Below, one piece after another: positions 26,573 through 43,039 of a DNA stretch of 61,650 nucleotides (its first letter is position 1; every line of letters begins with the position of its first letter). Origin of the DNA: Oscillospiraceae bacterium. Lineage in GTDB: Bacteria; Bacillota; Clostridia; Oscillospirales; JAGBHD01. The stretch covers positions 1 to 61,650 of the forward strand of contig JAGBHD010000054.1 in assembly GCA_018110785.1 (NCBI GenBank), read 5' to 3'. The translations under genes were made by a program, and so were the position numbers. Under the pieces are notes generated by a model. It was not told where the DNA came from and searched no databases. It saw only the letters and a program-made list of their open reading frames with translations.

Positions 26573-27381
26573 TAAGAGAAAATCTACATACTCATACTTT
26601 ATATTGCGACGGGAAAAATACAGCCGAAGAGATGATTTTGTCGGCAATAGAAAAATCCTTTACCGATATCGGCTTTTCGGGACATTCATTTACAGAGTTT
26701 GATACGAGCTACTGTATGACCGAAACACCAGAATACCGCGCTGAGATTTTATCCCTTAAAGAAAAATACAAGGGAAAAATAAATGTATGGTTAGGGCTTG
26801 AAAAGGATTATTTTTCAAATGAGGATAGAGGGGCTTATGATTATATCATAGGTTCGGTTCATTATGTTTTGAAAAACGGGCAATATATTCCTGTTGACGA
26901 ATCGGCTGAGACTATAAAAAATGCTGTGGAAAATGAGTATGGCGGAGATTATTCTCTTTTTATAAAGGATTATTATGAAGAGGTTTCCCTTATTGTTAAA
27001 AAGACCGATTGCGATATTATCGGGCATTTTGATTTAATATCGAAATATTTTGATGATTTAGGAATAGAAGAAACAGAAAGCTATTTAGAGATAGCTTTTA
27101 ATGCATTAGAAAAGCTTATTCCCGAGGGCAAACCCTTTGAGATAAATACGGGAGCTATTGCCCGCGGTACTAAAAAGCTTCCTTACCCCTCATTTAAAAT
27201 ACTGAAAAAAATAAATGAGCTTGAAGGCAAGATAATTTTCTCGAGCGACTGCCATAACAAGGAATATCTTGACTGCTATTTTGAAGAAAGCTTAGAAATA
27301 GCAAAAAAAGCGGGTTTTGCGGCAAGGTCGGTAATAACCGATAAAGGGTTTATAGAAATTGGTTTAGAGGAAGAATTATGA
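26569..27381 (+). CDS. hisK: Histidinol-phosphatase, PHP (HisJ/HisK) family
   Basis: NLHTHT..CDG, IGSVH, IIGHFDL, EINTG, SDCH; located in the his operon. Confidence 0.85.
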
Positions 27382-28160
27382 GAATAATTGATTTTCATAC
27401 GCATGTTTATCCTGAGAAGATAGCTCAGAAGGCTACGGATAATGTTTGCCATTTTTACGATATAAAGGGCGGTATTTTAGGAACAGCCGATATGCTTATA
27501 AAAGAGGGACAAAAAGTAGGGGTTGATAAATACGTTATCCTACCTGTTGCCCTAAAGCCTGAAAATGTTCGCCATTTAAACGAGGCAACCCTTTTTGAAA
27601 CCAAAAAGCATAAAGAATTTATCGGCTTTGGTACGGTACATGCGGCTCAGAATAACATAATGGAAGAAATAGAATATATTGAAAGTGCAGAGCTTCGCGG
27701 AATAAAAATGCACCCCGATTTTCAGCATTTTCCGATAGATGATAACAGGCTTTTTGAAATGTATGATTATTTACAAGATAAAATGCCTGTAATACTGCAT
27801 ACGGGAGATCCGCGATATACCTATTCGCATCCCGAAAAATTAAAAAAGGTTCTTGATAATTTTCCTCACCTTACCGTTATAGCGGCTCATATGGGCGGTT
27901 GGATGGTTTTTTCTGAGGCTTTAGAGATTTTGGGAAAAACAAACTGCTATGTGGATATTTCGAGTTCAAGAATGTTTATGGAGGGCGAAGCCATTTATAA
28001 ATATATAAACGGCTACGGCGCCGACAGAATTCTTTTTGGAAGCGATTTTCCGATTTGGAGCCCTGCAGACGAGTTTAACGCTTTGATGAAGCTTAATATA
28101 TCAGATGAGGCATTGGAGAAAATTGCACATAAAAACGCAGAGCGGATTTTAAAAATTTGA
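27378..28160 (+). CDS. Amidohydrolase family (Amidohydro_2) metal-dependent hydrolase
   Basis: IDFHTH, GIKMHP, LHTGD, AAHMGG, RILFGSDFP. Confidence 0.8.
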   Translation: MRIIDFHTHVYPEKIAQKATDNVCHFYDIKGGILGTADMLIKEGQKVGVDKYVILPVALKPENVRHLNEATLFETKKHKEFIGFGTVHAAQNNIMEEIEYIESAELRGIKMHPDFQHFPIDDNRLFEMYDYLQDKMPVILHTGDPRYTYSHPEKLKKVLDNFPHLTVIAAHMGGWMVFSEALEILGKTNCYVDISSSRMFMEGEAIYKYINGYGADRILFGSDFPIWSPADEFNALMKLNISDEALEKIAHKNAERILKI

Positions 28161-28187: not shown

Positions 28188-28216
28188 TTGACAACGATAA
28201 AAAAATAGTTTAATAT
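28188..28216 (+). promoter_or_regulatory. SigA promoter for the Leu T-box unit
   Basis: TTGACA-17 bp-TAATAT. Confidence 0.7.
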
Positions 28217-28241
28217 GTTTAATATATTAAATTTAAATATT

Positions 28242-28512
28242 AAATGCTATGAAGATATTAAGCGTAAGCGCAAATCGTATTTTCAGAGAGCCGTCGGTAG
28301 GTGCGAGGCGGCAGACGAGCTTTCAGCTGTCTCGTATCGGAGCAGGATTTCTGAAATCAGAGTAAGAGATCTCGGTTGGCCCCGTAATAGGCCAAGGGTT
28401 TGTTGGAACCTTAGAGTGGTTTTCTTGATAAAGAAAACAATGTCGGGTGGTACCGTGGTCAATAATTTGTTTGATCATCCCGCAGAGATTATTTCTCTGC
28501 GGGATTTTTTTA
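28242..28512 (+). promoter_or_regulatory. T-box riboswitch, Leu (specifier CUC at 28331-28333)
   Basis: GA motif GCTATGAA, AGAGA box, GGTGCGA loop, stem II AGTA, T-box GGGTGGTACCGTG, terminator ATCCCGCAGAGA/TCTCTGCGGGATTTTTT (28477-28510). Confidence 0.9.
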
Positions 28513-28532
28513 TTTAGAAAGGGAGAAAAAGT

Positions 28533-29903
28533 ATGAAAAAGATTGCAGTTTCCGATATGACTCTCAGAGTATTGGCGGAAGAAAACAAAAGGTTAACCTT
28601 TAGAGAGAAATTAAATATAGCATCTAACCTAGATGCTTGCGGTATAACTTCAATCGAGCTACCGTCGGTTGGTAAAGAAGCTGAAAACGAAGTAATTTAC
28701 CGAACTATAGCTACCTCTGTTAAAAGTGCGGAAGTTTGCATAGACGGCGGAGATACAATAGAAAGCGTTGAAGCGGCATACAACTGCATAAAAGATGCAG
28801 CCTCCCCTTGCATTCAGATAGTTATGCCTACATCTACAGTTCAGATGGAATATATTTATCATCTCAAATCAGCCGCTATGATTTCTAAAATAGCAGAGCT
28901 TGTATCTTTCGCGGCGAAAAAGGGAGCAAAGGTTGAATTTGTAGCAAGAGATGCTTCCAGAGCCGAAGAGGGATTTATCGAGGAATGCGCTAAAACTGTT
29001 TTTGAAAGCGGCGCCTCGGCGATTACTATTTGCGATGATGCGGGAATTTATTTCCCTGAGGATTACAGCGAGATAATTGCAAAGGTTAAAGGAAATACAG
29101 ATATAAAGGTTTATGCAGCTCCCTCGAACAGCTTAAGCCTCGCAGCGGCTTCGGCTATAGCCGCTATAAAGGCAGGAGCAGATGGAATTAAAACGGCTAT
29201 AAATGATAATTATTTAGGCGCAGATATTCTTTCTGATATATTCAGAAGCAAAGGCGCAGATATGAAGATAACAAGCTCTTTAGACAGCGCTGTTATAAAA
29301 ACTATGGTAGCTTCTCTTAAAGGCAGCGCAGCAATAGAGGTTAAAGAAGAGAAAGCGGCTTCCGTAGAGGTTATTGATGGTAGTTCAACAATAGCTGATA
29401 TTGCCGCCGCCGCAAAAAAACTCGGATACGAGCTTTCCGATGAGGATATCGGCAAGGTTTATGAGGAAGCAAAAAGGGTTATCCAGAAAAAGGGAAAGAT
29501 TGGAGCTAGTGAGCTTGAGGCTGTTATAGCTTCTGCTTCTATGCAGGTTCCCTCTACATTCCATGTTGTTTCTTATGTTGTAAACAGCGGAAATATTATT
29601 ACCGCAACGGCGAATGTAACCTTGGAGAAAAACGGCGAGAAAATAAGCGGTGTTGCAACTGGCGACGGCCCTATAGATGCGGCTTTCCATGCAATTGAGC
29701 AGATAGTAGGACACCATTACGAGCTTGACGATTTTCAGATACAGTCTATAACAAAGGGAAGAGAAGCGGTAGGCTCCTCTCTTATCAGGCTTAGAGCCGA
29801 CGGAAAGCTTTATTCCGGAACGGGGCTTTCTACCGATATCGTAGGCGCGAGTATTCGCGCTTATGTAAATGCGCTCAATAAAATAGTATATGAGGAAAAC
29901 TAA
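28533..29903 (+). CDS. LeuA (2-isopropylmalate synthase)-like protein with degenerate active site and intact C-terminal regulatory domain
   Basis: DMTLRVLAEE replaces DTTLRDGEQ; APSNSLSLA replaces HxHNDxGxA; GERAGN is absent. The C-terminus GDGPIDAAF...STDIVGASIRAYVNALNK is LeuA-like. Confidence 0.8.
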   Translation: MKKIAVSDMTLRVLAEENKRLTFREKLNIASNLDACGITSIELPSVGKEAENEVIYRTIATSVKSAEVCIDGGDTIESVEAAYNCIKDAASPCIQIVMPTSTVQMEYIYHLKSAAMISKIAELVSFAAKKGAKVEFVARDASRAEEGFIEECAKTVFESGASAITICDDAGIYFPEDYSEIIAKVKGNTDIKVYAAPSNSLSLAAASAIAAIKAGADGIKTAINDNYLGADILSDIFRSKGADMKITSSLDSAVIKTMVASLKGSAAIEVKEEKAASVEVIDGSSTIADIAAAAKKLGYELSDEDIGKVYEEAKRVIQKKGKIGASELEAVIASASMQVPSTFHVVSYVVNSGNIITATANVTLEKNGEKISGVATGDGPIDAAFHAIEQIVGHHYELDDFQIQSITKGREAVGSSLIRLRADGKLYSGTGLSTDIVGASIRAYVNALNKIVYEEN

Positions 29904-29904
29904 T

Positions 29905-32355
29905 ATGAAACTTGCTTTTTCAACCAAATATATAAATCCTGATTCCTTTTTAGAGCTTTGTAATTTTACCTCTGAATACGGATTTTCGGGATTTGAGGTA
30001 GCAAATGCTATCGCTGATAAAAAGCGCCATGAGGATAGCATATTTCATTCTTCTGAAACCGCAGGAGCAAAAAGAAAGCTTGTAAACCGCCATATTGAGA
30101 TAAGCGCTCTTGCATTTCCCGAAGCTATAAACGATAATACCGATGCAGAAGATTTGAAAAAATATGTAGAAATGGCATCTAATGTTTCGGGAAGCGGGGT
30201 AATAGTTGAATTTGAAACGATACCCGAAAGAGAGAAACTTAAAGCGATTTTTGGCCCTGCTATAGAAACAGCCGAGAAATTCGGCGTTATGATTATGATA
30301 GAAACGGCGGGACCTCTTTCCGACACAAAAAAGGTATTAGAGGTTATAAATGTTTTTGAAACCGCTGCTTTAGGGGTTGCATGGAATATAAGAGAAACCT
30401 ATTTTAAAGCGGGAGAGTCTGCCGATAAAACTATCCAGACCTTAGGCGCTTATATCTCTTATGTTCGCTTGGGGGACAAAAAAGGAGAGAAAAACGTTCT
30501 CATCGGCGATGGAGAGCTTCCTGTTCGCGATTTTATGAATGCCCTTCGCTCTCTTAATTACGATGGCTTTATCTCGGCAGACTGGAATGACGATATTACC
30601 TCTGCAGATATTGTTCTTACCCATTTTGTAAGCTATATGGCTTCTTTAGCGGCTAAAGAAACTGCTTCTAAAGAGATTTATTATAATCACTCTAAAACGG
30701 GAACATTCCCTTGGAAGAAATATGATGTTTTAGATATAACCTTTTCTGAGGTTCTCGATACTATGGCGGAAAGATACCCCGACCAATATGCATTTAAATA
30801 TACAACTCTCGACTATACGCGCACATACGCGCAGTTCAGAGAGGATGTTGATAAGGTTGCGGCGGCGCTTATTTCTATGGGCGTTAAGGCGGGACATCAT
30901 GTAGCTATATGGGCAACAAATGTTCCTCAATGGTTTTTAACCTTCTGGGCATCTGTTAAGATTGGCGCAGTTTTGGTAACCGTTAATACGGCATATAAAA
31001 TTCATGAGGCGGAATATCTGCTTCGCCAGTCGGATACCCATACTTTAGTTATGATAGACAGCTGCAAGGATTCTAATTATAAGGAAATTATAGAAGAGCT
31101 TTGCCCTGAGCTTAAAAACACAGTTCCCGGAACACCTCTTTATTCTAAAACTCTGCCATTTTTGCGCAATGTTGTAACCGTAGGCTTTAAGATGGACGGC
31201 GCTTTGGAATGGAATGAGTTTATGGAACGAAGCTCTTTAGTTCCTATAGAAGAGGTAAGAAGAAGAGCATCTAAGGTAGTTCCCGATGATGTTTGCAATA
31301 TGCAATATACCTCAGGAACAACGGGATTCCCCAAAGGCGTTATGCTGACACACCGCAATATTATAAACAACGGCAAGATAATCGGCGACCGAATGGATAT
31401 TTCAACTGCCGACAGAATGATGATTCAGGTTCCCATGTTCCATTGCTTCGGAATGGTTCTCTCGATGACTAATATGATGACTCACGGGGGAACAATTTGT
31501 CCTATGCCTTATTTCTCGCCGAAGTCTTCGCTTGCTTGTATAAATCAAGAAAAGATTACCTGTTTTAACGGTGTACCTACGATGTTTATCGCGATGTTTA
31601 ATCATGCAAATTTCTCAAAGACCGATTTTTCTCATATAAGAACGGGGATTATGGCAGGCGCCAACTGCCCTCCCGATTTAATGCGAAGAGCGGCGGCAGA
31701 GATGAATATGACTGAAATTATCAGCGTTTACGGACAGACAGAGGCTTCCCCCGGATGCACGATGGGAGAGGTAAATGAAGACCTTGAGCATAGGGTTGAA
31801 ACGGTTGGAAGCGCCTTTCCGGGAGTTGAATGTAAGATTATTGATCCCGAAACGGGAGAGGAACTGCCCGACGGAGAAAATGGCGAATTTGTTGCTCGCG
31901 GATATAATATAATGAAAGGGTATTATAAGATGCCCGAAGCTACCGAACAGACTATTGATAAAGACGGCTGGCTTCACAGCGGAGATATATGCTGCCGCAC
32001 TCCCGACGGATATTATAAGGTAACAGGCAGACTTAAGGATATGATAATTCGCGGCGGCGAAAATTTATATCCAAGAGAAATAGAGGAATTTTATTTAACA
32101 CATGATAAGGTCCGCGATGTTCAGGTTGTAGGCGTACCCGATAGCCGATATGGCGAAGAGGCCTGCGCTTGGATAATTCTTCATAAAGGGGTTTCTTCCG
32201 ATGAAGCTGAAATGAGGGAATACGGAGAAAGCCATATGGCAAAACACAAGGTCCCGAGATACTTTATTTTTACTAAAGAATTCCCGATGAATGCGGCAGG
32301 AAAGATACTTAAATATAAAATGAGAGATGAATCTATAAAAAAATTAGGACTTTAA
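29905..32355 (+). CDS. Fusion of a xylose-isomerase/AP-endonuclease-2-like TIM barrel and an AMP-dependent acyl-CoA synthetase
   Basis: N-terminus MKLAFST...YVRLGD...LIGDGELP..L...YDGFISADW. C-terminus YTSGTTGFPKG, YGQTEASP, WLHSGD, GRLKDMIIRGGEN, AGKILK. Start 29905 chosen from RBS GAGG. Confidence 0.85.
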   Translation: MKLAFSTKYINPDSFLELCNFTSEYGFSGFEVANAIADKKRHEDSIFHSSETAGAKRKLVNRHIEISALAFPEAINDNTDAEDLKKYVEMASNVSGSGVIVEFETIPEREKLKAIFGPAIETAEKFGVMIMIETAGPLSDTKKVLEVINVFETAALGVAWNIRETYFKAGESADKTIQTLGAYISYVRLGDKKGEKNVLIGDGELPVRDFMNALRSLNYDGFISADWNDDITSADIVLTHFVSYMASLAAKETASKEIYYNHSKTGTFPWKKYDVLDITFSEVLDTMAERYPDQYAFKYTTLDYTRTYAQFREDVDKVAAALISMGVKAGHHVAIWATNVPQWFLTFWASVKIGAVLVTVNTAYKIHEAEYLLRQSDTHTLVMIDSCKDSNYKEIIEELCPELKNTVPGTPLYSKTLPFLRNVVTVGFKMDGALEWNEFMERSSLVPIEEVRRRASKVVPDDVCNMQYTSGTTGFPKGVMLTHRNIINNGKIIGDRMDISTADRMMIQVPMFHCFGMVLSMTNMMTHGGTICPMPYFSPKSSLACINQEKITCFNGVPTMFIAMFNHANFSKTDFSHIRTGIMAGANCPPDLMRRAAAEMNMTEIISVYGQTEASPGCTMGEVNEDLEHRVETVGSAFPGVECKIIDPETGEELPDGENGEFVARGYNIMKGYYKMPEATEQTIDKDGWLHSGDICCRTPDGYYKVTGRLKDMIIRGGENLYPREIEEFYLTHDKVRDVQVVGVPDSRYGEEACAWIILHKGVSSDEAEMREYGESHMAKHKVPRYFIFTKEFPMNAAGKILKYKMRDESIKKLGL

Positions 32356-32374
32356 AATTTTTTTAAAAAAGTAC

Positions 32375-32403
32375 TTGACAGTAAAACTTTAGTGTGCTAA
32401 TAT
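32375..32403 (+). promoter_or_regulatory. SigA promoter for the Ile T-box unit
   Basis: TTGACA-17 bp-TAATAT with extended TG. Confidence 0.75.
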
Positions 32404-32420
32404 GATTTCATCAATTTAAT

Positions 32421-32682
32421 AAAGGCTATGACGAAGACGGACTTAACATAGAGTTTTAAAGAGAGTCGGGGGCGGTGGAAGCCCGATAAACAAGTGTTCT
32501 GTTTCCTATCACTTCTGAGCCGGAGATCCGAAAAGAATTTCTTAGTAGGCGTCTCTCGTGATTGCTGCGTTAATGCATACGGCTTGTTAGAGCCTGAGGG
32601 GCATCTTAAAGATGCAATTTGAGTGGTACCGCGGGTATTGATTTTCAAAACTCGTCTCAAGTTTTTTGAGACGGGTTTTTAT
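32421..32682 (+). promoter_or_regulatory. T-box riboswitch, Ile (specifier AUC at 32508-32510)
   Basis: GCTATGACGAAG...ATC-A-CTTC-TGAGC stem I, AGAGA and GGTGGAA boxes, AATTTGAGTGGTACCGCG, terminator ACTCGTCTCAA/TTGAGACGGGTTTTTT. Confidence 0.92.
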
Positions 32683-32707
32683 TATTTTATAAAAGGAGAG
32701 ATGGAAA

Positions 32708-34975
32708 ATGGAACTTAATACAGCCATGGAAAGACTTACGGAGATTGCTCGCCGAATACGCGAGATGCGAGAAATTTTAGGCTACAGCATTTCCGATATG
32801 GCTTTGAAAACCGAGGTCAGCGAAGAGCAGTATCTTGCGTTTGAAAGCGGTACGGCTGATATACCGTTCTCATTTATTCATAAATGCGCTTTGGTGTTTA
32901 ATGTTGAGCTTACCGAGCTTTTAGAAGGCAACAGCGCAAATCTTTCGAGCTATACAGTAACGAGAAAGGGAGAAGGACAGGAAACCGCTAAAGAAGACGG
33001 TATTGATATTAAAAACCTTGCTCCTAAATTTAAAGATAAGATAGCAGAGCCTTATTGGGTAAGATACGAATATTCTGCTTCTCAGCAAAATAAGCCTATT
33101 CATTTAACAAAGCACAGCGGACAGGAGTTTGACCTTGTTCTAAAGGGTACTTTAAAGGTTCAGATAGGCGAACATACAGAGGTTTTGCATGAGGGCGACA
33201 GCATTTATTACGACAGCTCAACACCTCACGGAATGATAGCTGTTAACGGAGAGGATTGCGTATTCTGCGCAGTTGTTCTCCCCGGAGAGGAAACAAAAGA
33301 AGAGGTTGTAAGACAGAGCATTGCTTCGGCAAAAACCTCCGAAGAGCTTATCTGCGAGGAGTTTGTTAAACCTTTGGAAGATGAAAACGGGGTTTTAAAG
33401 AAGATTGACTTTGTTAATACCGAGAGGTTCAACTTCGGATTTGATATCGTTGATAAAATCGCAGATAAATATCCCGAAAAATTAGCAATGCTTTATGTTG
33501 ATAAAAACCATAACGAGAAAAGATTTACCTTTAAGGATATAAAGAGAGCCTCTAACCAATGCGCTAACTATTTCGCTTCGCTTGGAATCGGAAAAGGCGA
33601 TAAGGTTATGCTCGTTTTGAAAAGACATTATCAGTTCTGGTTTTCTATGGTTGCTCTTCATAAGCTCGGCGCTGTTGCGATTCCTGCAACAAACCAGCTC
33701 AAAGAGCACGATTTTGAATATCGCTATAATGCGGCAGGGGTTAAGGCTATTATCTGCACATCTGATGGAGATACTGCCGAAATCGCTGAAAATGCGGCAA
33801 AGAAATGCCCTGAAGTTAAAACCAAAATTATCGTAGGAAATCCCCGCGAGGGCTGGTGCGACTTTAACAGCGAATACACCCGCTTTTCGGGAAAATTCGA
33901 AAGAAGCGAGGACACACCTGCAGGTGATGAAACTGCTTTAATGTTCTTCACATCGGGAACAACAGGAAACCCAAAAATGGCGGCTCATAAACATACCTAC
34001 GGTCTTGGACATTTTGTAACGGCTAAATACTGGCATTGTTGCGAAAGAGATGGCCTCCATTTTACAATTTCTGACACCGGCTGGGGAAAATCCCTTTGGG
34101 GCAAGCTTTACGGACAATGGCTCTGCGAGGGCGCGGTATTTGTTTACGACTTTGACAGATTTGATGCGGCAGATATTTTACCTATGTTTGCAAAATACAA
34201 GATAACAACCTTCTGCGCTCCGCCCACGATGCTTCGTATGTTTATAAAAGATGACCTTTCTAAATACGATTTGTCATCTATCCATCATATGACAACGGCA
34301 GGAGAGGCATTAAACCCTGAGGTTTATAAGCAATTCAAAGAGGCAACAGGTCTCCAGATTATGGAAGGCTTCGGTCAGACAGAAACAACCCTTACCATCT
34401 GCAACCTAAGAGGAACAACTCCGAAAATAGGCTCTATGGGCAAGGCTTCGCCGCAATACGATGTTGATATCGTAGATGCTGAAGGTAAATCCGTACCTAA
34501 CGGAGAAACCGGAGAAATCGTTATTCATACGGATAAAACCGTTCCATGCGGACTTTTCAATGAATATTATCTTGACGAAGAGAAAACGAATGAAGCTTGG
34601 TACGACGGAATGTATCATACAGGCGATACTGCTTGGAGAGATGAAGACGGTTATTTTTGGTATGTTAGCCGCATAGACGATGTTATCAAATCTTCGGGTT
34701 ACCGCATAGGACCTTTTGAAATCGAAAGCGTTATTATGGAGCTTCCTTATGTTTTAGAATGCGGTGTTTCAGCTGCTCCCGACGAGGTTCGCGGTCAGGT
34801 TGTTAAAGCTAGTGTTGTGCTTACCAAAGGAACTGTTCCCTCCGATGAACTCAAAAAGGAAATTCAGGAATATGTTAAGAGCCATACAGCTCCTTACAAG
34901 TATCCCAGAATCGTTGAATTCAGAGAGGAACTGCCGAAAACGATAAGCGGAAAAATCCAGCGCAATAAACTTTAA
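32708..34975 (+). CDS. XRE-HTH + cupin + AMP-dependent acyl-CoA synthetase fusion (medium/branched-chain type), Ile T-box controlled
   Basis: N-terminal HTH (RIREMREILGYS), cupin (HSGQEFDLV..GDSIYYDSSTPHGM), ligase motifs FTSGTTGNPK, GFGQTET, YHTGD, SSGYRIGPFEIE, PKTISGKIQR. Confidence 0.88.
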   Translation: MELNTAMERLTEIARRIREMREILGYSISDMALKTEVSEEQYLAFESGTADIPFSFIHKCALVFNVELTELLEGNSANLSSYTVTRKGEGQETAKEDGIDIKNLAPKFKDKIAEPYWVRYEYSASQQNKPIHLTKHSGQEFDLVLKGTLKVQIGEHTEVLHEGDSIYYDSSTPHGMIAVNGEDCVFCAVVLPGEETKEEVVRQSIASAKTSEELICEEFVKPLEDENGVLKKIDFVNTERFNFGFDIVDKIADKYPEKLAMLYVDKNHNEKRFTFKDIKRASNQCANYFASLGIGKGDKVMLVLKRHYQFWFSMVALHKLGAVAIPATNQLKEHDFEYRYNAAGVKAIICTSDGDTAEIAENAAKKCPEVKTKIIVGNPREGWCDFNSEYTRFSGKFERSEDTPAGDETALMFFTSGTTGNPKMAAHKHTYGLGHFVTAKYWHCCERDGLHFTISDTGWGKSLWGKLYGQWLCEGAVFVYDFDRFDAADILPMFAKYKITTFCAPPTMLRMFIKDDLSKYDLSSIHHMTTAGEALNPEVYKQFKEATGLQIMEGFGQTETTLTICNLRGTTPKIGSMGKASPQYDVDIVDAEGKSVPNGETGEIVIHTDKTVPCGLFNEYYLDEEKTNEAWYDGMYHTGDTAWRDEDGYFWYVSRIDDVIKSSGYRIGPFEIESVIMELPYVLECGVSAAPDEVRGQVVKASVVLTKGTVPSDELKKEIQEYVKSHTAPYKYPRIVEFREELPKTISGKIQRNKL

Positions 34976-34982
34976 AAAATAG

Positions 34983-35012
34983 TTGACAAGATTTTAGAAG
35001 ATATGATATAAT
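34983..35012 (+). promoter_or_regulatory. SigA promoter for the Val T-box unit
   Basis: TTGACA-18 bp-TATAAT with extended TG. Confidence 0.75.
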
Positions 35013-35024
35013 TCTCTTATATTG

Positions 35025-35308
35025 TAAAGGCTTCGACGAAGAGGGCAAAAGAATGTTCCGGTTAAGAGAGGCGGCGGTTGGTGAAAGCTGCTCGAAGAAA
35101 TCTTTTGTTTGTAGCTTCTGAGCCGGAAGGAAGAAAGGGCAAAAAAGCCTTAGTAGAACCTTCCCGTGATTGCTGCGTAAATGCATAAGGCTTGATAGAG
35201 CCTGAGGGGCATCTTAAAGATGCAATTTGAGTGGTACCGCGGGATATAATTGATTTTATAGCTCGTCTCAAAGGAAACATATCTTTTGAGGCGGGCTGTT
35301 ATTGTTTA
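35025..35308 (+). promoter_or_regulatory. T-box riboswitch, Val (specifier GUA at 35111-35113)
   Basis: GACGAAG...GTA-G-CTTC-TGAGC stem I, AGAGA and GGTGAAA boxes, AATTTGAGTGGTACCGCG, terminator stem AGCTCGTCTCAAAG/TTTTGAGGCGGGCT. Confidence 0.92.
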
Positions 35309-35338
35309 AAACCCGCCGGCACAACGGGAGGAACTTAT

Positions 35339-37636
35339 ATGAATACTGCTACCGGTCTTGAATTTAAAATTAAAGAGATGGCGCAGCGAATTCGTACGCT
35401 TAGAGAAATAGTTGGAATTTCGCCTGATGAGATGGCGGCAAAAACAGGCATCAGCTCAGCAGAATATATTGCTTGCGAAGCGGGAGAGAAAGATTTAAAC
35501 TTTGCTTTTCTTTATCGCTGCGCGTTAGCTTTGAATGTTGATGTTACCGATATTATAGAGGGCGCAAGCCCCCGTCTTGCAGGATATACAGTTACAAGAA
35601 ACGGAGCCGGTCAGGAAATTCAAAAGGCGCACGGCATGACCTATTATAACCTTGCCGCTTCCTTTAAAAATCGTATCGCGGAGCCTTTGTATGTTATATC
35701 CCAATATGACGAAAAAGCGCAGAACGCCGATATTGAGCTTACGAGCCACGAAGGTCAGGAATGCGATGTTGTAGTTAAAGGAGCTTTAAAGGTTCAGGTA
35801 GGCGACCATATTGAAATTCTCCATGAGGGCGATAGCATTTATTACGATAGCTCAACCCCTCACGGAATGATAGCTGTTGAGGGCGAAGACTGTATTTTCT
35901 ATGCATTTGTTTTAAACCCCGCAAGCGAGCCTATTTCAAAGATTGCTCACGGCGGCGTTAGAGATTTTGTAGCGGCGCCTAACAAAAAGAAAAAAGAAGA
36001 AAAAAAGCGCATATGGGAAGACATTATTATTCCGACAGAAGATGATAACGGCGTTTTAAAGGCTATAAGCTTTAAAAATGAGGATAATTTCAACTTTGCT
36101 TTTGATGTTATTGACCGTTTAGGCAGAGAACAGCCCGAGAAAACAGCCATGATTCATATTTCAAGGGATAAAACAGAACGCCGTTTTACCTTTTCGGAGC
36201 TAAAAAGAGCATCGTCGCAAACTGCGAACTATTTTAAATCATTGGGCATCAAAAAGGGCGATAAAGTAATGCTTATTCTAAAGCGTCATTATCAGTTCTG
36301 GTTTTCAATGATAGCGCTTCATAAAATAGGTGCTATTGCAATTCCTGCGACAAATCAGCTTAAAGAGCACGATCTTACATACAGATTTAACAAAGCTAAT
36401 GTTAAAATGATAATCTGCACCTCTGATGACGGTGTTGCCGAAGAGGTTGAAAAGGCAGAAAAACATTCTCCCGAGCTTCAAACCAAAATCATAGTAGGCT
36501 CCCATAGAGATGGTTGGAGAAGCTTTGACGAGGAATATGGCTTATATACAGGCAAATTCGAGCGCGATGAAGAGTCCCCCTCGGGCGATGATATTATGCT
36601 TATGTATTTTACCTCGGGAACAACAGGAAATCCAAAAATCGCAATGCATAACTATAAATATCCGCTCGGTCATTTTATAACCGCGAAATATTGGCATTGT
36701 GTTAATCCCGATGGGCTTCACCTTACAATTTCCGATACAGGTTGGGCAAAGGCTGCATGGGGCAAGCTTTACGGACAATGGCTTTGCGAAGCAGGTCTTT
36801 TTGTTTACGATTTCGATAGATTTGATGCGAACGATATTATGCCAATGTTCGCTCGCTACGGAATTACGACCTTCTGCGCTCCGCCAACAATGCTTCGCAT
36901 GATGATAAAGCAGGATTTATCGAAATTTGATCTTTCCTCTATCGAGCATATGACAACGGCGGGAGAGGCATTAAACCCCGAAGTCTTCAGACAGTTTGAA
37001 AAGGCAACGGGACTGCAGATAATGGAGGGCTTCGGACAGACCGAAACGACGGTTGCTTTAGCTAACCTTGCAGGAACTAAGGCTAGGCTCGGCTCGATGG
37101 GAAAACCCGTTCCGCTTTATAATATAGAGCTTGTAGATTCAGATGATAAGCCTGTCCCTGTTGGCGAGGTAGGCGAGATTGTTATAAATATCAAAAACGG
37201 TACACCGCCCGGACTTTTCCAAGGATATTATACCGATGAAGAAAAAACCGCCGAATGCAAAAGAAACGGGTACTATCATACAGGCGATACTGCTTGGCGC
37301 GATGAAGACGGTTATTTCTGGTATGTAGGAAGGGTTGATGACGTTATTAAGTCATCAGGTTACCGCATAGGACCTTTTGAGATTGAAAATGTTATTATGG
37401 AGTTGCCCTATGTTTTAGAGTGCGGCGTTTCAGCTGAGCCTGATGAGGTAAGAGGTCAGGTAGTTAAGGCAAGTATAGTTTTAGTAAAAGGAACTGACGG
37501 CACTGACGAGCTGAAAAAGGAAATTCAGGAATATGTTAAAAACAGAACAGCTCCTTATAAATACCCCAGAGTTGTAGTTTTCAGAGATGAGCTTCCGAAA
37601 ACAACAAGCGGAAAAATTCAGAGAAATAAACTGTAA
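35339..37636 (+). CDS. XRE-HTH + cupin + AMP-dependent acyl-CoA synthetase fusion (paralogue of 32708..34975), Val T-box controlled
   Basis: Same domain order and motifs as the paralogue. True start is ATG 35339 after GGAGG; the longer ORF-track start lies inside the T-box. Confidence 0.88.
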   Translation: MNTATGLEFKIKEMAQRIRTLREIVGISPDEMAAKTGISSAEYIACEAGEKDLNFAFLYRCALALNVDVTDIIEGASPRLAGYTVTRNGAGQEIQKAHGMTYYNLAASFKNRIAEPLYVISQYDEKAQNADIELTSHEGQECDVVVKGALKVQVGDHIEILHEGDSIYYDSSTPHGMIAVEGEDCIFYAFVLNPASEPISKIAHGGVRDFVAAPNKKKKEEKKRIWEDIIIPTEDDNGVLKAISFKNEDNFNFAFDVIDRLGREQPEKTAMIHISRDKTERRFTFSELKRASSQTANYFKSLGIKKGDKVMLILKRHYQFWFSMIALHKIGAIAIPATNQLKEHDLTYRFNKANVKMIICTSDDGVAEEVEKAEKHSPELQTKIIVGSHRDGWRSFDEEYGLYTGKFERDEESPSGDDIMLMYFTSGTTGNPKIAMHNYKYPLGHFITAKYWHCVNPDGLHLTISDTGWAKAAWGKLYGQWLCEAGLFVYDFDRFDANDIMPMFARYGITTFCAPPTMLRMMIKQDLSKFDLSSIEHMTTAGEALNPEVFRQFEKATGLQIMEGFGQTETTVALANLAGTKARLGSMGKPVPLYNIELVDSDDKPVPVGEVGEIVINIKNGTPPGLFQGYYTDEEKTAECKRNGYYHTGDTAWRDEDGYFWYVGRVDDVIKSSGYRIGPFEIENVIMELPYVLECGVSAEPDEVRGQVVKASIVLVKGTDGTDELKKEIQEYVKNRTAPYKYPRVVVFRDELPKTTSGKIQRNKL

Positions 37637-37648
37637 AGGAGAATATAT

Positions 37649-38728
37649 ATGAAATACGAAATTTCTATAACCAAAACAGCGGCTCCAAAGCCTCACCCGA
37701 CCGATGAATCAAAGCTCGGTTTCGGAAGAATTTTTACAGATCACATGTTTTTAATGGATTATGCGGCTGATAAAGGCTGGTATAACGGAAGAATAGTTCC
37801 TTTCGGTCCCATCCCCGTTCACCCTGCTTCTACCGTTTTGCATTACGGCGCAGAGATATTTGAAGGACTTAAGGCCTATAGAACGGTTAATAACGAGATT
37901 AAATTATTCCGTCCGTTAGAAAACATAAAGCGCCTTAACAACAGCGCAGAGCGTTTATGCTTGCCTGAACTTGATGAAGAGGGCTGTCTTGATATTTTAA
38001 AGACATTGGTTGAACTAGAAAAGGATTGGGTTCCAAAGAGCGAGGGGACATCTCTTTATCTTCGTCCGTTCCTTTTCGGAAATGACCCGCATCTTGGAGT
38101 TCACGCAGTTAAAGAGGCTGTTTTTGCAGTTATCTGCTCACCCGTTGGCGCTTATTATGCAGAGGGCATAAACCCCGTTAAGATTGCTATTGAATCCGAA
38201 GATGTTCGCGCTGTTCGCGGCGGAACAGGATACGCTAAATGCGGCGGTAACTATGCGGCAAGTCTTAGAGCGGGAGAAAGAGCCGAAAGAAAGGGATATA
38301 CTCAGGTTCTTTGGCTTGACGGCGTTGAGAGAAAATATATTGAAGAAGTCGGCGCGATGAACGTTATGTTCAAAATCGACGGCAAAATTATAACCCCCGC
38401 GCTTACAGGCTCGGTACTCCCCGGTATAACAAGAAAATCCAGTATAGAGATGCTTCGCGATTGGGGATATGAGGTAGAGGAAAGACTTTTATCGGTTGAT
38501 GAGCTGTTTGCGGCGGCAGAAGACGGCAGCTTAGAAGAGGCTTGGGGAACAGGAACAGCGGCAGTTGTTTCTCCTATAGGTCATCTTTTCTATAACGGCA
38601 AGGAATATACTGTTTCCAATAATGAAATAGGTGAACTTACACAGAAGCTTTATGATAATCTTACAGGTATTCAGTGGGGCAAGATAGAAGATAAATACGG
38701 CTGGTGCGAAAAGGTTTGCAATGGGTAA
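37649..38728 (+). CDS. ilvE: Branched-chain amino acid aminotransferase
   Basis: LGFG..FTDHM, LHYGAEIFEGLKAY, LYLRP, KCGGNYA, EEVGAMN, LPGITR, GTAAVVSP. Confidence 0.96.
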   Translation: MKYEISITKTAAPKPHPTDESKLGFGRIFTDHMFLMDYAADKGWYNGRIVPFGPIPVHPASTVLHYGAEIFEGLKAYRTVNNEIKLFRPLENIKRLNNSAERLCLPELDEEGCLDILKTLVELEKDWVPKSEGTSLYLRPFLFGNDPHLGVHAVKEAVFAVICSPVGAYYAEGINPVKIAIESEDVRAVRGGTGYAKCGGNYAASLRAGERAERKGYTQVLWLDGVERKYIEEVGAMNVMFKIDGKIITPALTGSVLPGITRKSSIEMLRDWGYEVEERLLSVDELFAAAEDGSLEEAWGTGTAAVVSPIGHLFYNGKEYTVSNNEIGELTQKLYDNLTGIQWGKIEDKYGWCEKVCNG

Positions 38729-39383
38729 GAGAATTTACATTATTGCAGGGCATTACGGAAGCGGAAAAACAAATATAGCGGTAAACTTGGCGCTAAAGCT
38801 TAGAAAAGAGGGAAAAGAGGATAAAATTGCCGACCTTGATATAGTTAACCCCTATTTCAGAACTAAGGACAGCGCGGATGTTTTGGAAAAAGCGGGAATA
38901 GAGCTGATTTCTCCCCATTTTGCCAATACAAATGTTGATCTACCCGCTCTTCCGCCCGAAACCTATAGCATATTCCAGAATAAGAATTTTTCTGCAGTAA
39001 TAGATGTTGGCGGAGATGACAGAGGCGCCTATGCGCTAGGCAGATATGCTCCCTACATTTTGGAAGAAAATAATTTCGAAATGTGCTTCGTTGCAAATTT
39101 CTATAGACCTTTAACAAAAACGGCTGAAGAAGCGATAGAGGTAATGAGAGAAATTGAAGCCGCCTGCGGCATAAAATTTACTGCGATTATAAACAATTCC
39201 AATCTTGGTTCTGAGACTGCAAAAGAGGATATCTTAGCCTCTAACATTCAGGCTGAGCGGTTGAGAGAAATATCCTCTCTTCCGATACTTTTTAATTCGG
39301 TAAGAGCCGATATATCAGAGGAAATAGAAGACAGCTTTCCTCTTAATTTGCAGGAAAAATATTACGATATAAAGGAGAATTAG
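38721..39383 (+). CDS. SIMIBI/ParA-MinD-like P-loop NTPase associated with vor genes
   Basis: GHYGSGKT Walker A, ADLDIVNPYFR, DVGGD. Confidence 0.75.
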   Translation: MGKRIYIIAGHYGSGKTNIAVNLALKLRKEGKEDKIADLDIVNPYFRTKDSADVLEKAGIELISPHFANTNVDLPALPPETYSIFQNKNFSAVIDVGGDDRGAYALGRYAPYILEENNFEMCFVANFYRPLTKTAEEAIEVMREIEAACGIKFTAIINNSNLGSETAKEDILASNIQAERLREISSLPILFNSVRADISEEIEDSFPLNLQEKYYDIKEN

Positions 39384-39384
39384 T

Positions 39385-39591
39385 ATGGCAAAGGTTAGTT
39401 TTAAAACTGATATTTGCAAGGGCTGCGGACTTTGTGTTGACGCGTGTCCGAAAAAAATTATCGCTTTAGCGAAAGATAAATTAAATGCGAAAGGACATTC
39501 TCCCGCGATTATTACCGATCAGGATAAATGCATCGGTTGCGCTTTTTGCGCAACAATGTGTCCCGACTGTGTAATAACCGTTGAGAAATGA
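39385..39591 (+). CDS. 2x[4Fe-4S] ferredoxin (oxidoreductase delta subunit)
   Basis: [12 protein letters not shown] and [12 protein letters not shown]. Confidence 0.93.
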
Positions 39592-39601
39592 GGTGTTGAA
39601 A

Positions 39602-40662
39602 ATGGCAGAAAAGGTTTTAATGAAAGGTAACGAAGCTATTGCGGAAGCGGCTATTAAAGCGGGCTGTCGCCATTATTTCGGTTATCCTATAACCCCTCAG
39701 ACAGAAATTGCGGCTTATATGGCAAAGCGTATGCCTAAAATCGGCGGTGTATTTCTACAGGCAGAAAGCGAGGTTTCTGCAATTAATATGGTTTACGGAG
39801 TTGCGGGAGCAGTTTCAGAGTTATGACCTCTTCTTCTTCCCCCGGTATTTCCTTAAAGCAAGAGGGTATTTCTTATATCGCAGGCGCAGATTTGCCCGCG
39901 CTTATCGTTAATGTTCAGCGTGGAGGCCCCGGCCTTGGCGGCATTCAGCCCTCTCAGTCGGACTATTTTCAGGCAACAAAGGGCGGCGGACACGGAGATT
40001 ACCATCTTATCGTTTTAGCCCCTGCTTCTGTTCAGGAAATGGCAGACCTTACAATTAAGGCTTTCGATTTATCCGAGAAATACAGAGTTCCTACAATGCT
40101 TTTAGCAGACGGAACTATGGGACAGATGATGGAGCCTGTTGAACTTCCTGAGATAGCTCCCAAAGAAAGCGAAAAGCCTTGGGCTGTAAGAGGAACAAAA
40201 ATGGAGAGAGAACATAATATTATAAACTCTCTTTATTTAAAACCCGAAATTTTAGAGAAAACAAACTTCGAAAGATTCGAGAGATACAAGGCTATCGAAG
40301 AAAACGAAGCTATGTATGAAGAATATATGATGGACGATGCTGAGATTTGCGTTGTTGCATTCGGTATTGCGGCGAGAGTTTCCAAAAACGCAGTTACTGC
40401 GGCTCGCAAAAAAGGCATCAAGGTAGGACTTATAAGGCCTATAACCCTCTGGCCTTTCCCGAAAGAGGCTTTGAAGAAGGCGGCAGACAAGGTAAAAGGA
40501 TTTATCTCTGTTGAGCTTTCTATGGGCCAGATGATTGAGGATATAAAGCTTTCTACCGAATGCAAAAAGCCGGTAGAGCTTTGCAACCGCACAGGCGGTA
40601 TGATTCCTACCCCCGAAGAAGTTCTTGCTTCTATTGAAAAATTAGCAAAGGAGGCAAAATAG
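39602..40662 (+). CDS. vorB: 2-oxoacid (3-methyl-2-oxobutanoate):ferredoxin oxidoreductase alpha-type subunit; apparent 1-bp deletion at ~39812
   Basis: [23 protein letters not shown]. Adding one G at 39812 gives [14 protein letters not shown] and joins the 39823..40662 frame. Confidence 0.88.
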
Positions 40663-40663
40663 A

Positions 40664-41416
40664 ATGGTAGTATTTGAGAAACCGAAGGCATTAACCGATG
40701 CGCCTTTGCATTATTGCCCTGGCTGCACACACGGTATTATTCACCGATTAGTAGCAGAGGCTATTGATGAGCTCGGTGTAGAGGGAAAAACTGTTGGTGT
40801 TGCTCCTGTTGGATGCGCAGTTATGGCATATGATTATTTTGCCTGCGATATGGTAGAAGCGGCTCACGGAAGAGCCCCCGCTGTTGCAACAGGTCTTAAA
40901 AGAGCTATGCCCGAAAATATAATCTTTACATATCAAGGCGATGGAGATTTAGCTTCTATCGGTATGGCAGAAACTGTTCATGCCGCAACAAGAAACGAAA
41001 ATATAACAATTATTTTCGTTAACAATGCAATCTACGGTATGACAGGCGGTCAGATGGCTCCTACATCTCTCCCCGGTCAGGTAACCCAGACCTCTCCTTA
41101 CGGAAGAGACACAGCCGTTCAGGGATTTCCTATTAAGGTAAGCGAGATGCTTTCCGCTTTAGATGGTCCCGAATATATCGAGCGCGTTGCCGTTAATAAT
41201 GTTAAAAATGTTAAGAATGCTAAAAAGGCAATCTTAAAGGCATTTAAAAATCAGGTTGAGGGAAAAGGATTTTCTTTAATTGAGGTTGTTTCCTCCTGCC
41301 CTACAAACTGGGGTATGACTCCTTCTAAAGCTTTAGAGTGGGTAGAAGAAAAAATGATTCCCTATTATCCTCTCGGCGTTTATAAAGATAAGAGCGCTGA
41401 AAAGAAGGAGGACTAA
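40664..41416 (+). CDS. 2-oxoacid:ferredoxin oxidoreductase beta (TPP-binding) subunit
   Basis: YCPGCTHG, HGRAPA, QGDGDLASIG...NNAIYGMTGGQ, CPTNW. Confidence 0.92.
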   Translation: MVVFEKPKALTDAPLHYCPGCTHGIIHRLVAEAIDELGVEGKTVGVAPVGCAVMAYDYFACDMVEAAHGRAPAVATGLKRAMPENIIFTYQGDGDLASIGMAETVHAATRNENITIIFVNNAIYGMTGGQMAPTSLPGQVTQTSPYGRDTAVQGFPIKVSEMLSALDGPEYIERVAVNNVKNVKNAKKAILKAFKNQVEGKGFSLIEVVSSCPTNWGMTPSKALEWVEEKMIPYYPLGVYKDKSAEKKED

Positions 41417-41418
41417 TC

Positions 41419-41949
41419 ATGACAACACAGATTTTAATCGCAGGCTTCGGCGGACAGGGCGTTTTATTCGCAGGAAAGTTTATAGCGTATAAAGGTCTTA
41501 TCGAGAATAAGGAGGTTAGCTGGCTCCCGTCATACGGACCTGAAATGCGCGGCGGAACGGCTAACTGCAGTATTATTATAAGCGATGAGCCTGTAGGCTC
41601 GCCTATCGTATCTAACCCTGATGTTCTTATCGCGATGAATTTACCCTCTTTGGATAAATATGAAAAGGAAGCAAAACCCGGCTCTTTGATTTTTGTTGAC
41701 AGTACTCTTATTGAGCGCAAGGTAGAAAGAGGAGATGTTAAAGCCTTCTATATCCCCGCAACAAAAATGGCTATGGATGCAGGAATTCCTACTTTAGCTA
41801 ATATGATAATTGTAGGAAAGGTTTTGAAAGAAACCGAAGGACTTTCCAAAGATAATCTTGAAGAGGCTATGAAAAAGGTTGTTTCGGCAAAGAGAATAGA
41901 GCTTTTAGATATGAACATCAAGGCTATTGAAGCAGGATATAATTATTAA
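41419..41949 (+). CDS. 2-oxoacid:ferredoxin oxidoreductase gamma subunit
   Basis: AGFGGQG, SYGPEMRGGTA. Confidence 0.92.
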   Translation: MTTQILIAGFGGQGVLFAGKFIAYKGLIENKEVSWLPSYGPEMRGGTANCSIIISDEPVGSPIVSNPDVLIAMNLPSLDKYEKEAKPGSLIFVDSTLIERKVERGDVKAFYIPATKMAMDAGIPTLANMIIVGKVLKETEGLSKDNLEEAMKKVVSAKRIELLDMNIKAIEAGYNY

Positions 41950-41984
41950 AACAAAAGAGATGGCTTGCCATCTCTTTTGTTTTT
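41948..41984 (+). terminator. Intrinsic terminator ending the branched-chain cluster
   Basis: AAAACAAAAGAGATGGC-TT-GCCATCTCTTTTGTTTT. Confidence 0.9.
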
Positions 41985-42109: not shown

Positions 42110-43039
42110 ATGCGAGGATACAAGAAAAAAGCTTTAATAATTTTAAACCCAAAAGCGGGGCAAAAGAAAGCTAACCGCCTTTTAACCGATATTATCTCGG
42201 AACTTCAAAAGGGCGGATATATCTGCACACCCGTTGTAACAACTGCCTCAAAGGAAGGTGAGGATATTGCTGCTTCTTTGGCGAAAGATTATGATACAGT
42301 TATCGCAGTTGGCGGGGACGGCACCTTTAATGAGGTAGTTTCGGGAGTAATTAAATCGGGCGCCGAAGTTTCGATAGGATATATTCCTGCGGGAAGCACA
42401 AATGATTTTGCCGCCGCATTGAAGCTTTCCTCTTCGCCTGTTTCAGCCGCTAAAGCTATTGCGGCAGGGAACATAAGAAAACTTGATGTTGGAAGCTTTA
42501 ATGACAGGATTTTTACCTATGTTGCATCATTTGGCGCATTTACGGAAGCTTCTTATACAACACCTCAAGAATTAAAGAATGCATTGGGACATCTTGCTTA
42601 TATAATAGAGGGTACTAAGGACATTTGGAGCATAAAAAGCTATAAGCTAAAGGTTGAAACCGATAAAAAAACCTTTGAGGGGGATTATATATTCGGAGCG
42701 GTAAGCAATTCAACCTCTTTGGGCGGTCTTTTGAAAATAAATCCTAATATCGTTGATATGAACGATGGGCTTTTGGAGCTTCTTTTTATTAAAAAGCCTG
42801 AAAATCTTAATGATTTAGGCCAGATAATAACCGCTCTTAATACAATGAAATATAATAGCCCTATGATAGATTTTTGCTCGACACACAAAGCGGTTATTTA
42901 TGCCGATAAGAAGATGAATTGGACCTTAGACGGAGAAAGGGCAGAGGGTAAGGAAATAATAGAGGTAAAAAATATTAAGGATAAAATTGATATTATTGCT
43001 TCGTCTGTCGGAGCAAAAAAAGGAAAAGAACGAAAATGA
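42110..43039 (+). CDS. Diacylglycerol/lipid kinase family protein (YegS/BmrU)
   Basis: NPKAG, GGDGTFNEV, IPAGSTNDF, LDGE. Confidence 0.88.
   Translation: MRGYKKKALIILNPKAGQKKANRLLTDIISELQKGGYICTPVVTTASKEGEDIAASLAKDYDTVIAVGGDGTFNEVVSGVIKSGAEVSIGYIPAGSTNDFAAALKLSSSPVSAAKAIAAGNIRKLDVGSFNDRIFTYVASFGAFTEASYTTPQELKNALGHLAYIIEGTKDIWSIKSYKLKVETDKKTFEGDYIFGAVSNSTSLGGLLKINPNIVDMNDGLLELLFIKKPENLNDLGQIITALNTMKYNSPMIDFCSTHKAVIYADKKMNWTLDGERAEGKEIIEVKNIKDKIDIIASSVGAKKGKERK

Follow-up and report, generated by a model that had tools for sequence, protein, structure and literature searches.

Many anaerobes have been known for decades to need or use branched short-chain fatty acids for valine, isoleucine and leucine. 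In the classic route, described in methanogens as well as in anaerobes of the rumen and gut (the bacterial work dates from the 1960s-80s), isobutyrate, 2-methylbutyrate and isovalerate are reductively carboxylated to Val, Ile and Leu, respectively. The DNA analysed here, a 61,650-nucleotide contig of an Oscillospiraceae bacterium (the window), includes a 13.8-kb cluster on the forward strand that consists of three tandem T-box units, for Leu, Ile and Val, each with a gene for an AMP-forming acyl-coenzyme A (acyl-CoA) ligase. The cluster is probably a salvage regulon through which exogenous branched short-chain fatty acids would be turned into Leu, Ile and Val via reductive carboxylation. The proposed chemistry is the same as in the classic physiology, which is known from labelling and nutrition experiments, whereas the proposal here is a defined gene set with its mode of regulation and one dedicated ligase per acid.

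T-boxes turn genes on when the tRNA is uncharged, and ANL AMP-forming ligases run from the acid to the acyl-CoA. The leaders in the window share the riboswitch architecture and logic of the T-box regulons of Firmicutes, which govern biosynthesis, transport and aminoacyl-tRNA synthetases, but their targets are fatty-acid-activating ligases and a 2-oxoacid:ferredoxin oxidoreductase (OFOR). The main text of a T-box survey (Wels 2008, PMC2494555) does not contain the terms 'CoA', 'ferredoxin', 'oxidoreductase' or 'AMP-binding'. The window ligases belong to the ANL family together with MacsMa of Methanosarcina acetivorans (3ETC), the preferred substrate of which is 2-methylbutyrate according to an excerpt of PMC10455477, and with MbcS, which activates 2-methylbutyrate and isobutyrate, isovalerate and butyrate being poor substrates (excerpt of PMC10026030). 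Unlike either enzyme, the Ile and Val ligases of the window have a 225-amino-acid N-terminus of helix-turn-helix (HTH) and cupin type, stand under T-box control and are linked with vor and ilvE; MbcS, unlike them, serves lipid synthesis. The two-domain fold of that N-terminus is that of XRE-HTH plus cupin regulators (1Y9Q) and of the HTH-cupin enzymes HppE and HEPD, but in contrast to the stand-alone regulators it is fused to a ligase. In openly searchable full text (subscription journals and supplements lying outside it), no T-box-gated branched-acid ligases with vor and ilvE were found, and the gene module, the sensor-like fusions and the wide spread of the module in small-genome, ilvC-less gut Clostridia were likewise not found described. 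The chemistry is classic and the parts come from known families; the module, its regulation and its fusions were not found described in that text.

The features of the cluster are as follows.

28188..28216, +, promoter-like site of the Leu unit, TTGACA-17-TAATAT (promoter scan)
28240..28505, +, Leu T-box leader, specifier CUC at 28331, UGGU bulge (Rfam RF00230)
28477-28505, +, terminator of the Leu leader (terminator scan)
28533..29903, +, LeuA-like protein, 456 amino acids, HMGL-like barrel plus LeuA_dimer (Pfam)
29905..32355, +, Leu ligase, 816 amino acids, xylose-isomerase-like TIM barrel (about residues 1-257) plus AMP-forming acyl-CoA ligase (Pfam)
32375..32403, +, promoter-like site of the Ile unit (promoter scan)
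32419..32679, +, Ile T-box leader, specifier AUC at 32508, UGGU bulge (Rfam RF00230)
32647-32679, +, terminator of the Ile leader (terminator scan)
32708..34975, +, Ile ligase, 755 amino acids, HTH(XRE)-cupin-acyl-CoA ligase (Pfam HTH_19/HTH_3, Cupin_2 and AMP-binding)
34983..35012, +, promoter-like site of the Val unit, 12/12 consensus positions, extended TG (promoter scan)
35024..35299, +, Val T-box leader, specifier GUA at 35111, UGGU bulge (Rfam RF00230)
35258-35299, +, terminator of the Val leader (terminator scan)
35339..37636, +, Val ligase, HTH-cupin-acyl-CoA ligase paralog (Pfam)
37649..38728, +, branched-chain amino acid aminotransferase IlvE (NCBIfam NF009897, 475 bits, equivalog cut-off 307)
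38721..39383, +, P-loop nucleoside triphosphatase (NTPase) of the CbiA/MinD/ParA kind, 220 amino acids (weak Pfam matches)
39385..39591, +, 68-amino-acid 2x[4Fe-4S] ferredoxin (two CxxCxxCxxxCP motifs in the translation)
39602..40662, +, vorB (alpha subunit), in two frames (NF005507 VorB on both pieces)
40664..41416, +, Vor beta subunit, binding thiamine diphosphate (Pfam TPP_enzyme_C; OFOR beta models under their cut-offs)
41419..41949, +, Vor gamma subunit, vorC (Pfam POR, 135.6 bits)
41953..41984, +, likely operon terminator, a 12-pair hairpin (41953-41978) followed by a T-tract (read from the sequence; absent from the scan listing)

The leaders were searched with the Rfam RF00230 covariance model, for which the gathering score is 93 bits. 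The Leu leader (28240-28485) scored above it, with 107.3 bits (E 2e-23), and the Ile leader (32419-32662; 91.9 bits, E 2e-19) and the Val leader (35024-35273; 90.3 bits, E 5.3e-19) both span the full T-box model (positions 1-219), far beyond chance. The specifiers CUC, AUC and GUA, which a sequence-only reading of the same DNA had placed at 28331, 32508 and 35111, were recovered at these positions in the covariance-model alignments, with a purine following each (CUC+G, AUC+A and GUA+G). The UGGU bulge reported in that reading is present in all three leaders, and both a promoter-like site and a leader terminator were found for each of the units to which it had assigned a promoter. Its expectation that the bulge would fit the ends of the tRNAs holds for two of the three: the genome has a tRNA-Leu(GAG) matching CUC and a tRNA-Val(UAC) matching GUA, both genes ending in ACCA, and tRNA-Ile is not among the assembled tRNAs. 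Eight T-boxes were found in the genome, the other five standing ahead of thrS, cysE, a trpB-like gene, alaS and pheS; those of the cluster are therefore the only Leu/Ile/Val T-boxes of the genome.

Identity between the Ile and Val leaders is 73% (212/290 columns), and their 3' halves hardly differ, as would be expected if a leader-plus-ligase unit had been duplicated in tandem and a specifier had then changed. Upstream regions of related leaders were aligned (22 Leu, 77 Ile and 65 Val); all three classes retain the promoter hexamers, with TTGACA and TAtaAT at 80% or more in the 22 Leu regions, and no conserved palindrome that could be an HTH operator was found in these regions beyond the hexamers. 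The distance from the stop codon of one ligase to the next promoter is about 20 nucleotides (32355-32375) and about 8 nucleotides (34975-34983), with no terminator between the units; read-through would hence enter the next T-box and could add the three signals together. As to the Val unit, which had been described as running to a single terminator, a hairpin and T-tract can be read in the sequence after vorC, but the terminator scan did not list them.

All three ligases were assigned by the sequence-only reading as AMP-forming synthetases, and their AMP-binding and AMP-binding_C domains do score above the Pfam cut-offs, at 323.9 and 56.1 bits in the Leu ligase (which also matches AP_endonuc_2), 232.1 and 76.7 bits in the Ile ligase and 232.5 and 75.7 bits in the Val ligase. 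The start positions given there, 29905, 32708 and 35339, are correct, the first being fixed by ortholog alignment. The Val ligase is 64% identical to the Ile ligase over its whole length, and the solved structure closest to the Ile ligase is that of MacsMa (3ETC; 646 bits, E ~1e-193, residues 234-753), which is also the nearest to the Val ligase. As judged by family and specifier, the Ile ligase is predicted to be a 2-methylbutyrate-CoA ligase, the Val ligase an isobutyrate-CoA ligase, and the Leu ligase an isovalerate-CoA ligase. The poor activity of MbcS on isovalerate fits an arrangement in which isovalerate goes to a ligase of another lineage and the two paralogs take the alpha-branched acids.

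To compare the paralogs, 76 ATC-gated and 56 GTA-gated proteins were classed by the specifier of the leader in front of the gene. Fourteen positions, each at least 93% conserved within its class, separate the two, five of them in the ligase domain and nine in the HTH-cupin part (residues 10-116). Within the motif DTGW[G/A]K, which by analogy with Acs structures would line the acyl pocket, Gly460 is found in 76/76 ATC-gated proteins versus Ala in 56/56 GTA-gated ones; MacsMa has Gly. The exchange of Gly for Ala would fit the smaller isobutyrate. Among four distant ligases assigned by their T-boxes, the Gly/Ala rule holds in three. The nine class-separating residues in the HTH-cupin module indicate that this module has also diverged in a paralog-specific manner.

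The HTH-cupin module was recognised by Pfam HTH_3/HTH_19 and Cupin_2 and has a weak sequence match to 1Y9Q. Its structural model has a mean predicted local distance difference test score (pLDDT) of 71.7, and the top Foldseek matches, HppE, 1Y9Q and HEPD, reach template-modelling scores of only ~0.3. In all four examined relatives with stop codons inside the match (loci L103, L104, L105 and L106, in G017, G114, G001 and G022), one or two stop codons lie at the domain boundary, exactly at the end of the cupin domain, so that the HTH-cupin protein is encoded by a separate gene immediately upstream of that for the ligase and in the same frame. The fusion in the window thus differs from these loci by loss or gain of a stop codon. 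A T-box was found in front in one of the three stop-inside loci that were scanned.

The Leu unit is headed by the LeuA-like gene. Its product has the architecture of LeuA, an HMGL-like barrel with LeuA_dimer, the Leu-binding regulatory domain of that enzyme, and shares with LeuA the link to Leu, here through the CUC T-box. LeuA_dimer (PF08502, 110.4 bits) is the best-conserved part of the protein. In contrast, all models of 2-isopropylmalate synthase (IPMS) fell below their cut-offs, the best with 233.4 bits against 532, and in comparison with the IPMS structure 3EWB the RDGEQ motif is replaced by RVLAEE and H-C-H (HxH) by A-P-S. In LeuA structures, the Asp of RDGEQ and the His pair of HxH are the metal ligands of the enzyme; the corresponding positions are non-canonical in 21/21 LeuA-like orthologs and, unlike the case of LeuA, no leuBCD genes that could use a product were found. 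The protein is therefore read as a conserved pseudo-enzyme, predicted to be inactive as a synthase, and it may sense Leu. Relatives are named 'hypothetical protein' by NCBI and '2-isopropylmalate synthase' by JGI. The TIM domain of the Leu ligase was modelled with a pLDDT of 84, its structural matches being generic sugar epimerase/isomerase folds, and as with the HTH-cupin module the fold comparison pointed to no particular function; TIM domains of the window type do not have the His of an H-x-H-I-x-D motif, whereas a second type keeps it. Prediction of a complex between the LeuA-like protein and this TIM domain gave 0.01 and 0.02 against a mark of 0.32, which counts neither way.

Downstream of the Val ligase, the run of ilvE, NTPase, ferredoxin and Vor genes proposed from the letters alone was recovered as far as the families go; the ferredoxin is most like an OFOR delta subunit, and vorB is split. 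Similarly, the ligases, ilvE, the NTPase and Vor of the gene list in that reading stand, while the LeuA-like gene, the ligase fusions and the vorB frameshift had been overlooked. IlvE also matches TIGR01123 with 398 bits (cut-off 250). The best NCBIfam models for the 68-amino-acid ferredoxin, all under their cut-offs, are OFOR delta subunits, and it is most likely the Vor delta subunit. The gene set for a four-subunit Vor (alpha, beta, gamma and delta) is complete, with matches partly under cut-offs. In vorB, this assembly has a 1-nucleotide deletion (GG to G) near 39812: the extra G is present in 5/5 aligned relatives, the two pieces share one frame in related loci, and the C-terminal piece matches NF005507 with 429 bits, above the subfamily cut-off of 399.

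The NTPase had no match in NCBIfam and only weak sequence matches in the PDB, and its Atlas neighbours are uncharacterised CbiA-family clusters only. A GHYGSGKT Walker A motif is common to 55 orthologs. None of their Cys residues is invariant, which makes a bridging iron-sulfur cluster of the NifH kind unlikely for this protein.

Given these families and their order, the cluster would operate as follows. Uncharged tRNA would bind its own leader, anticodon to specifier and ACCA to UGGU, and this would block the leader terminator, so that the ligase gene behind it is transcribed. Each ligase would spend ATP to yield one acyl-CoA: isovaleryl-CoA from the Leu-gated TIM-ligase, 2-methylbutyryl-CoA from the Ile-gated HTH-cupin ligase and isobutyryl-CoA from its Val-gated paralog. 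One shared four-subunit Vor (delta, alpha, beta and gamma), run in reverse, would then convert the acyl-CoAs with CO2 and reduced ferredoxin to the three 2-oxoacids, and a single shared IlvE would transaminate all three to Leu, Ile and Val. The branched acids are most likely supplied by neighbouring microbes. We infer the substrates, the direction of Vor and the induction by starvation from the sequence; the RNA elements, gene families, gene order and conservation are direct observations, as is the finding of no standard pathway. The same course from acid through acyl-CoA and 2-oxoacid to amino acid had been put forward in the sequence-only reading, and those of its parts that can be checked computationally all held.

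The conservation of the cluster was examined in species-representative genomes scanned with the Ile ligase. Close relatives of this ligase were confirmed in at least 578 species-level genome records, from at least 600 matched stretches; the counts that follow refer to the best 80 of these loci. All 80 are from metagenome-assembled genomes of uncultured Clostridia, labelled Acutalibacteraceae, Oscillospiraceae, Eubacteriales etc., many from ruminant hindguts. Adjacent tandem HTH-cupin ligases are present in 62/80, and most of the other 18 loci end at contig edges; the Ile ligase stands alone in three 22-kb loci, and in one it is followed directly by ilvE. The order of the module, for which a synteny survey had been proposed, is conserved in two layouts. 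Thirteen loci have that of the window, which opens with the Leu unit and places ilvE ahead of the NTPase gene. In the second layout, ilvE follows vorC, and in eight such loci the Leu unit comes after ilvE, with its own T-box and a LeuA-like gene of some 40% identity; a TIM-ligase is present in the seven loci where the sequence allowed (6 of the 8, plus L025). In both layouts, the NTPase, ferredoxin and vorBAC genes are kept together in every locus where they were found.

To locate leaders in these loci, a profile of the three leaders in the window was used, and the specifier column was read by hmmalign (165 leaders, including those of the window). The pairing of specifier and ligase paralog is invariant among the related loci: ATC precedes an Ile-type ligase in 78/78 cases, GTA a Val-type ligase in 62/62 and CTC a LeuA-like gene in 21/21, and the remaining four leaders, at contig ends, have GTA (3) or CTC (1). 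The TGGT bulge is present in 164/165. A quick maximum-likelihood tree was made from 50 ligase domains; in it, the 23 ATC-gated fusions sampled form one clade (99% support), and the 23 GTA-gated ones all fall outside it.

The genome that carries the cluster is 1.40 Mb in 63 contigs and 97.47% complete, the window being contig 12. The absence of ilvBCD and leuBCD from the window, stated earlier, was extended to the whole assembly: ilvB (acetolactate synthase large subunit), ilvC and ilvD had no match in the 97.47% complete genome, whereas each of these searches succeeded in 14/14 control genomes. The leuB and leuC models gave sub-threshold matches only, to an aconitate hydratase (PRK07229, 975 bits, cut-off 612) and an isocitrate dehydrogenase (IDH)-like dehydrogenase on contig 5. 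These lie in a row (G000:C5:3233-7783; loci L009 and L010) of an IPMS/homocitrate-synthase-like gene, a gene for a GntR regulator, the aconitase gene and the IDH-like gene. Given the synthase-like gene and GntR, this row appears to be a citrate-to-2-oxoglutarate branch with a synthase of the LeuA family and not leuBCD, and the IPMS/homocitrate-synthase-like gene is possibly a citrate synthase. By tblastn of the genome with the cluster proteins (E<=1e-5), no second ANL ligase, IlvE or Vor was found. No BrnQ-type carrier was found in the genome. Three ABC permease genes of the BPD_transp_2 family, which includes LivHM, are present; the family also covers sugar transporters. A separate T-box in this genome (G000:C21:1571-3247), with an apparent UGG (Trp) specifier as read by eye, stands ahead of a gene for a TrpB-like pyridoxal phosphate enzyme (NF009057, 690 bits), which may be a further salvage step, from indole to tryptophan. 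Part of the window was found in 20 sequencing runs from 11 studies, the top ones all animal gut metagenomes; these runs include one RNA run, with a share of 0.35.

The wider distribution was surveyed in 151 evenly sampled genomes of the order, which are mutually related; the tally was made by hand, with 33 lower-scoring matches outside the matches listed. The ligase was matched at E<=1e-100 in 104/151 genomes, and among the matches listed an uninterrupted, full-length HTH-cupin-ligase fusion is present in 51/151, including the genome studied here. Also among the matches listed, ilvC was above the cut-off in 6/51 fusion genomes versus 62/100 others, which is a pattern and not a test. In the one further genome from this genus, ilvC is present and the ligase is not among the matches listed. 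A distant complete single-contig genome (G009), which has ilvC, includes two ligase-only copies (L097 and L098), of which one has an ATC and the other a GTC T-box in front; an ilvE-like gene there is likewise preceded by a GTC T-box. In the quick tree, these two copies are mutual nearest relatives (99% support, long branches), a hint that Ile and Val ligases may have separated a second time, independently. Another distant genome has an ATC T-box, an HTH-cupin ligase, the NTPase, the ferredoxin and vorBAC in this order.

Several observations weigh against reading the cluster as a salvage regulon. The Ile and Val leaders lie 1-3 bits under the Rfam gathering score, and tRNA-Ile is missing from the 33 assembled tRNAs. 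As ilvE and vor stand solely behind the Val leader, Leu and Ile transcripts must cross the next T-box terminator; no terminator-free bypass leads from the Leu or Ile promoter, and a rise of the shared enzymes under Ile-only or Leu-only starvation is thus left unexplained. The best NCBIfam model of the Leu ligase, PRK12583 (669.8 bits), is under its cut-off of 832, and that of the Ile and Val ligases, MbcS (NF047394; 458.7 and 451.4 bits), is under the equivalog cut-off of 850, so they are relatives and not equivalogs of MbcS. A distant ATC-gated ligase, in G121, has the 'Val-type' GWAK. Among the matches listed, 6/51 fusion genomes also have ilvC, and the module hence does not always stand in for the standard pathway. 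Finally, the frameshifted vorB is the sole copy in the genome, and a real deletion would mean that this strain has lost the pathway.

This last point bears on the possibility that the cluster is a decaying remnant here, with branched-chain amino acids or peptides imported instead. The missing G, present in 5/5 relatives, splits vorB in a genome that has no second vor, and the three BPD_transp_2 permeases could include a Liv-type importer. All other genes of the cluster are full-length by comparison with their orthologs, however, no BrnQ-type carrier was found, and loss of a single base in a GG pair is a common error in metagenome-assembled genomes; decay in this strain is considered unlikely, if a serious possibility. 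A different direction of flow would follow if IlvE and Vor oxidised branched-chain amino acids to acyl-CoAs for fermentation. Both enzymes are reversible and work oxidatively in amino-acid fermenters, but the cluster is gated by three T-boxes that turn on with uncharged tRNA, ATP-consuming ligases would be useless after an oxidative Vor, no energy-conserving acyl-CoA step is encoded in the cluster, and among the matches listed the module is found mostly in genomes without ilvC. A catabolic role is thus scarcely credible.

The other two explanations concern the fate of the acyl-CoAs and the role of the Leu unit. If the ligases acted like MbcS of S. aureus, their products would prime the synthesis of membrane branched-chain fatty acids, and Vor and IlvE would not be directed toward amino acids. 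MbcS is indeed the best NCBIfam model of both HTH-cupin ligases, and it feeds FabH (excerpt of PMC10026030). In contrast, control by tRNA-Leu, tRNA-Ile and tRNA-Val signals a shortage of amino acids and not of lipids, the Val ligase gene shares a transcription unit with ilvE and vor, and no other route to Leu, Ile or Val was found in the genome, all of which makes a purely lipid-directed function very improbable; the acyl-CoAs may serve both lipids and amino acids. It is also rather unlikely that the Leu unit does something extra, its LeuA-like protein and TIM barrel making a Leu precursor from some other compound. The LeuA-like protein and TIM-ligase are kept as a pair behind a CTC T-box even where identity falls to about 40% and the unit stands elsewhere in the cluster, and each of the two barrels, in the LeuA-like protein and in the TIM domain, has some invariant residues. 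Nevertheless, the metal-binding Asp and two His of IPMS are replaced in 21/21 LeuA-like proteins, the His of H-x-H-I-x-D is missing from TIM domains of the window type, and the course from isovalerate through Vor and IlvE needs no added step. Conversion of the three branched acids to Leu, Ile and Val remains the preferred reading of the cluster.

A second tier of control can be envisaged for such a salvage regulon, in which T-boxes would respond to each amino acid and a small-molecule sensor would sit on or beside each ATP-consuming ligase. This is a tentative proposal and on balance a doubtful one. Speculatively, the HTH-cupin module would be the sensor of Ile or Val and the dead LeuA with its Leu-binding domain the sensor of Leu, which would amount to end-product feedback; the appended modules may sense the end product or the substrate at the committed step.

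The remainder of the window includes an S10-Clostridia ribosomal protein leader at 836-914 (+; RF03136, 49.8 bits, gathering score 35.1), which probably marks the start of a ribosomal protein operon near the left end. The cluster is directly preceded, at 25919-28160 (+), by hisIE (PRA-CH plus PRA-PH) and genes for a PHP-domain protein, possibly a histidinol phosphatase, and an Amidohydro_2 protein; the same three genes are found ahead of the Leu unit in several related loci. Downstream, at 42110-43980 (+), lie genes for a lipid kinase of the diacylglycerol kinase family (DAGK_cat plus YegS_C) and a family 2 glycosyltransferase, which appear unrelated to the cluster.

Genome-based metabolic models usually omit the branched-acid route. 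The main text of a 2022 reconstruction of amino-acid biosynthesis in the human gut microbiome (PMC9026213) contains no mention of isovalerate, isobutyrate, ferredoxin, T-box or carboxylation. The cluster provides a compact, genome-searchable marker for this route, and its specifier codons serve as built-in labels that predict which ligase is paired with which acid. If the reading is true, it would provide natural cases of a change of T-box specifier after duplication and of enzyme-sensor fusions, and the scoring of many predicted auxotrophies would have to be revised. Cross-feeding between amino-acid fermenters and these small-genome Clostridia would be accounted for as well, and defined culture supplements for the latter would suggest themselves.

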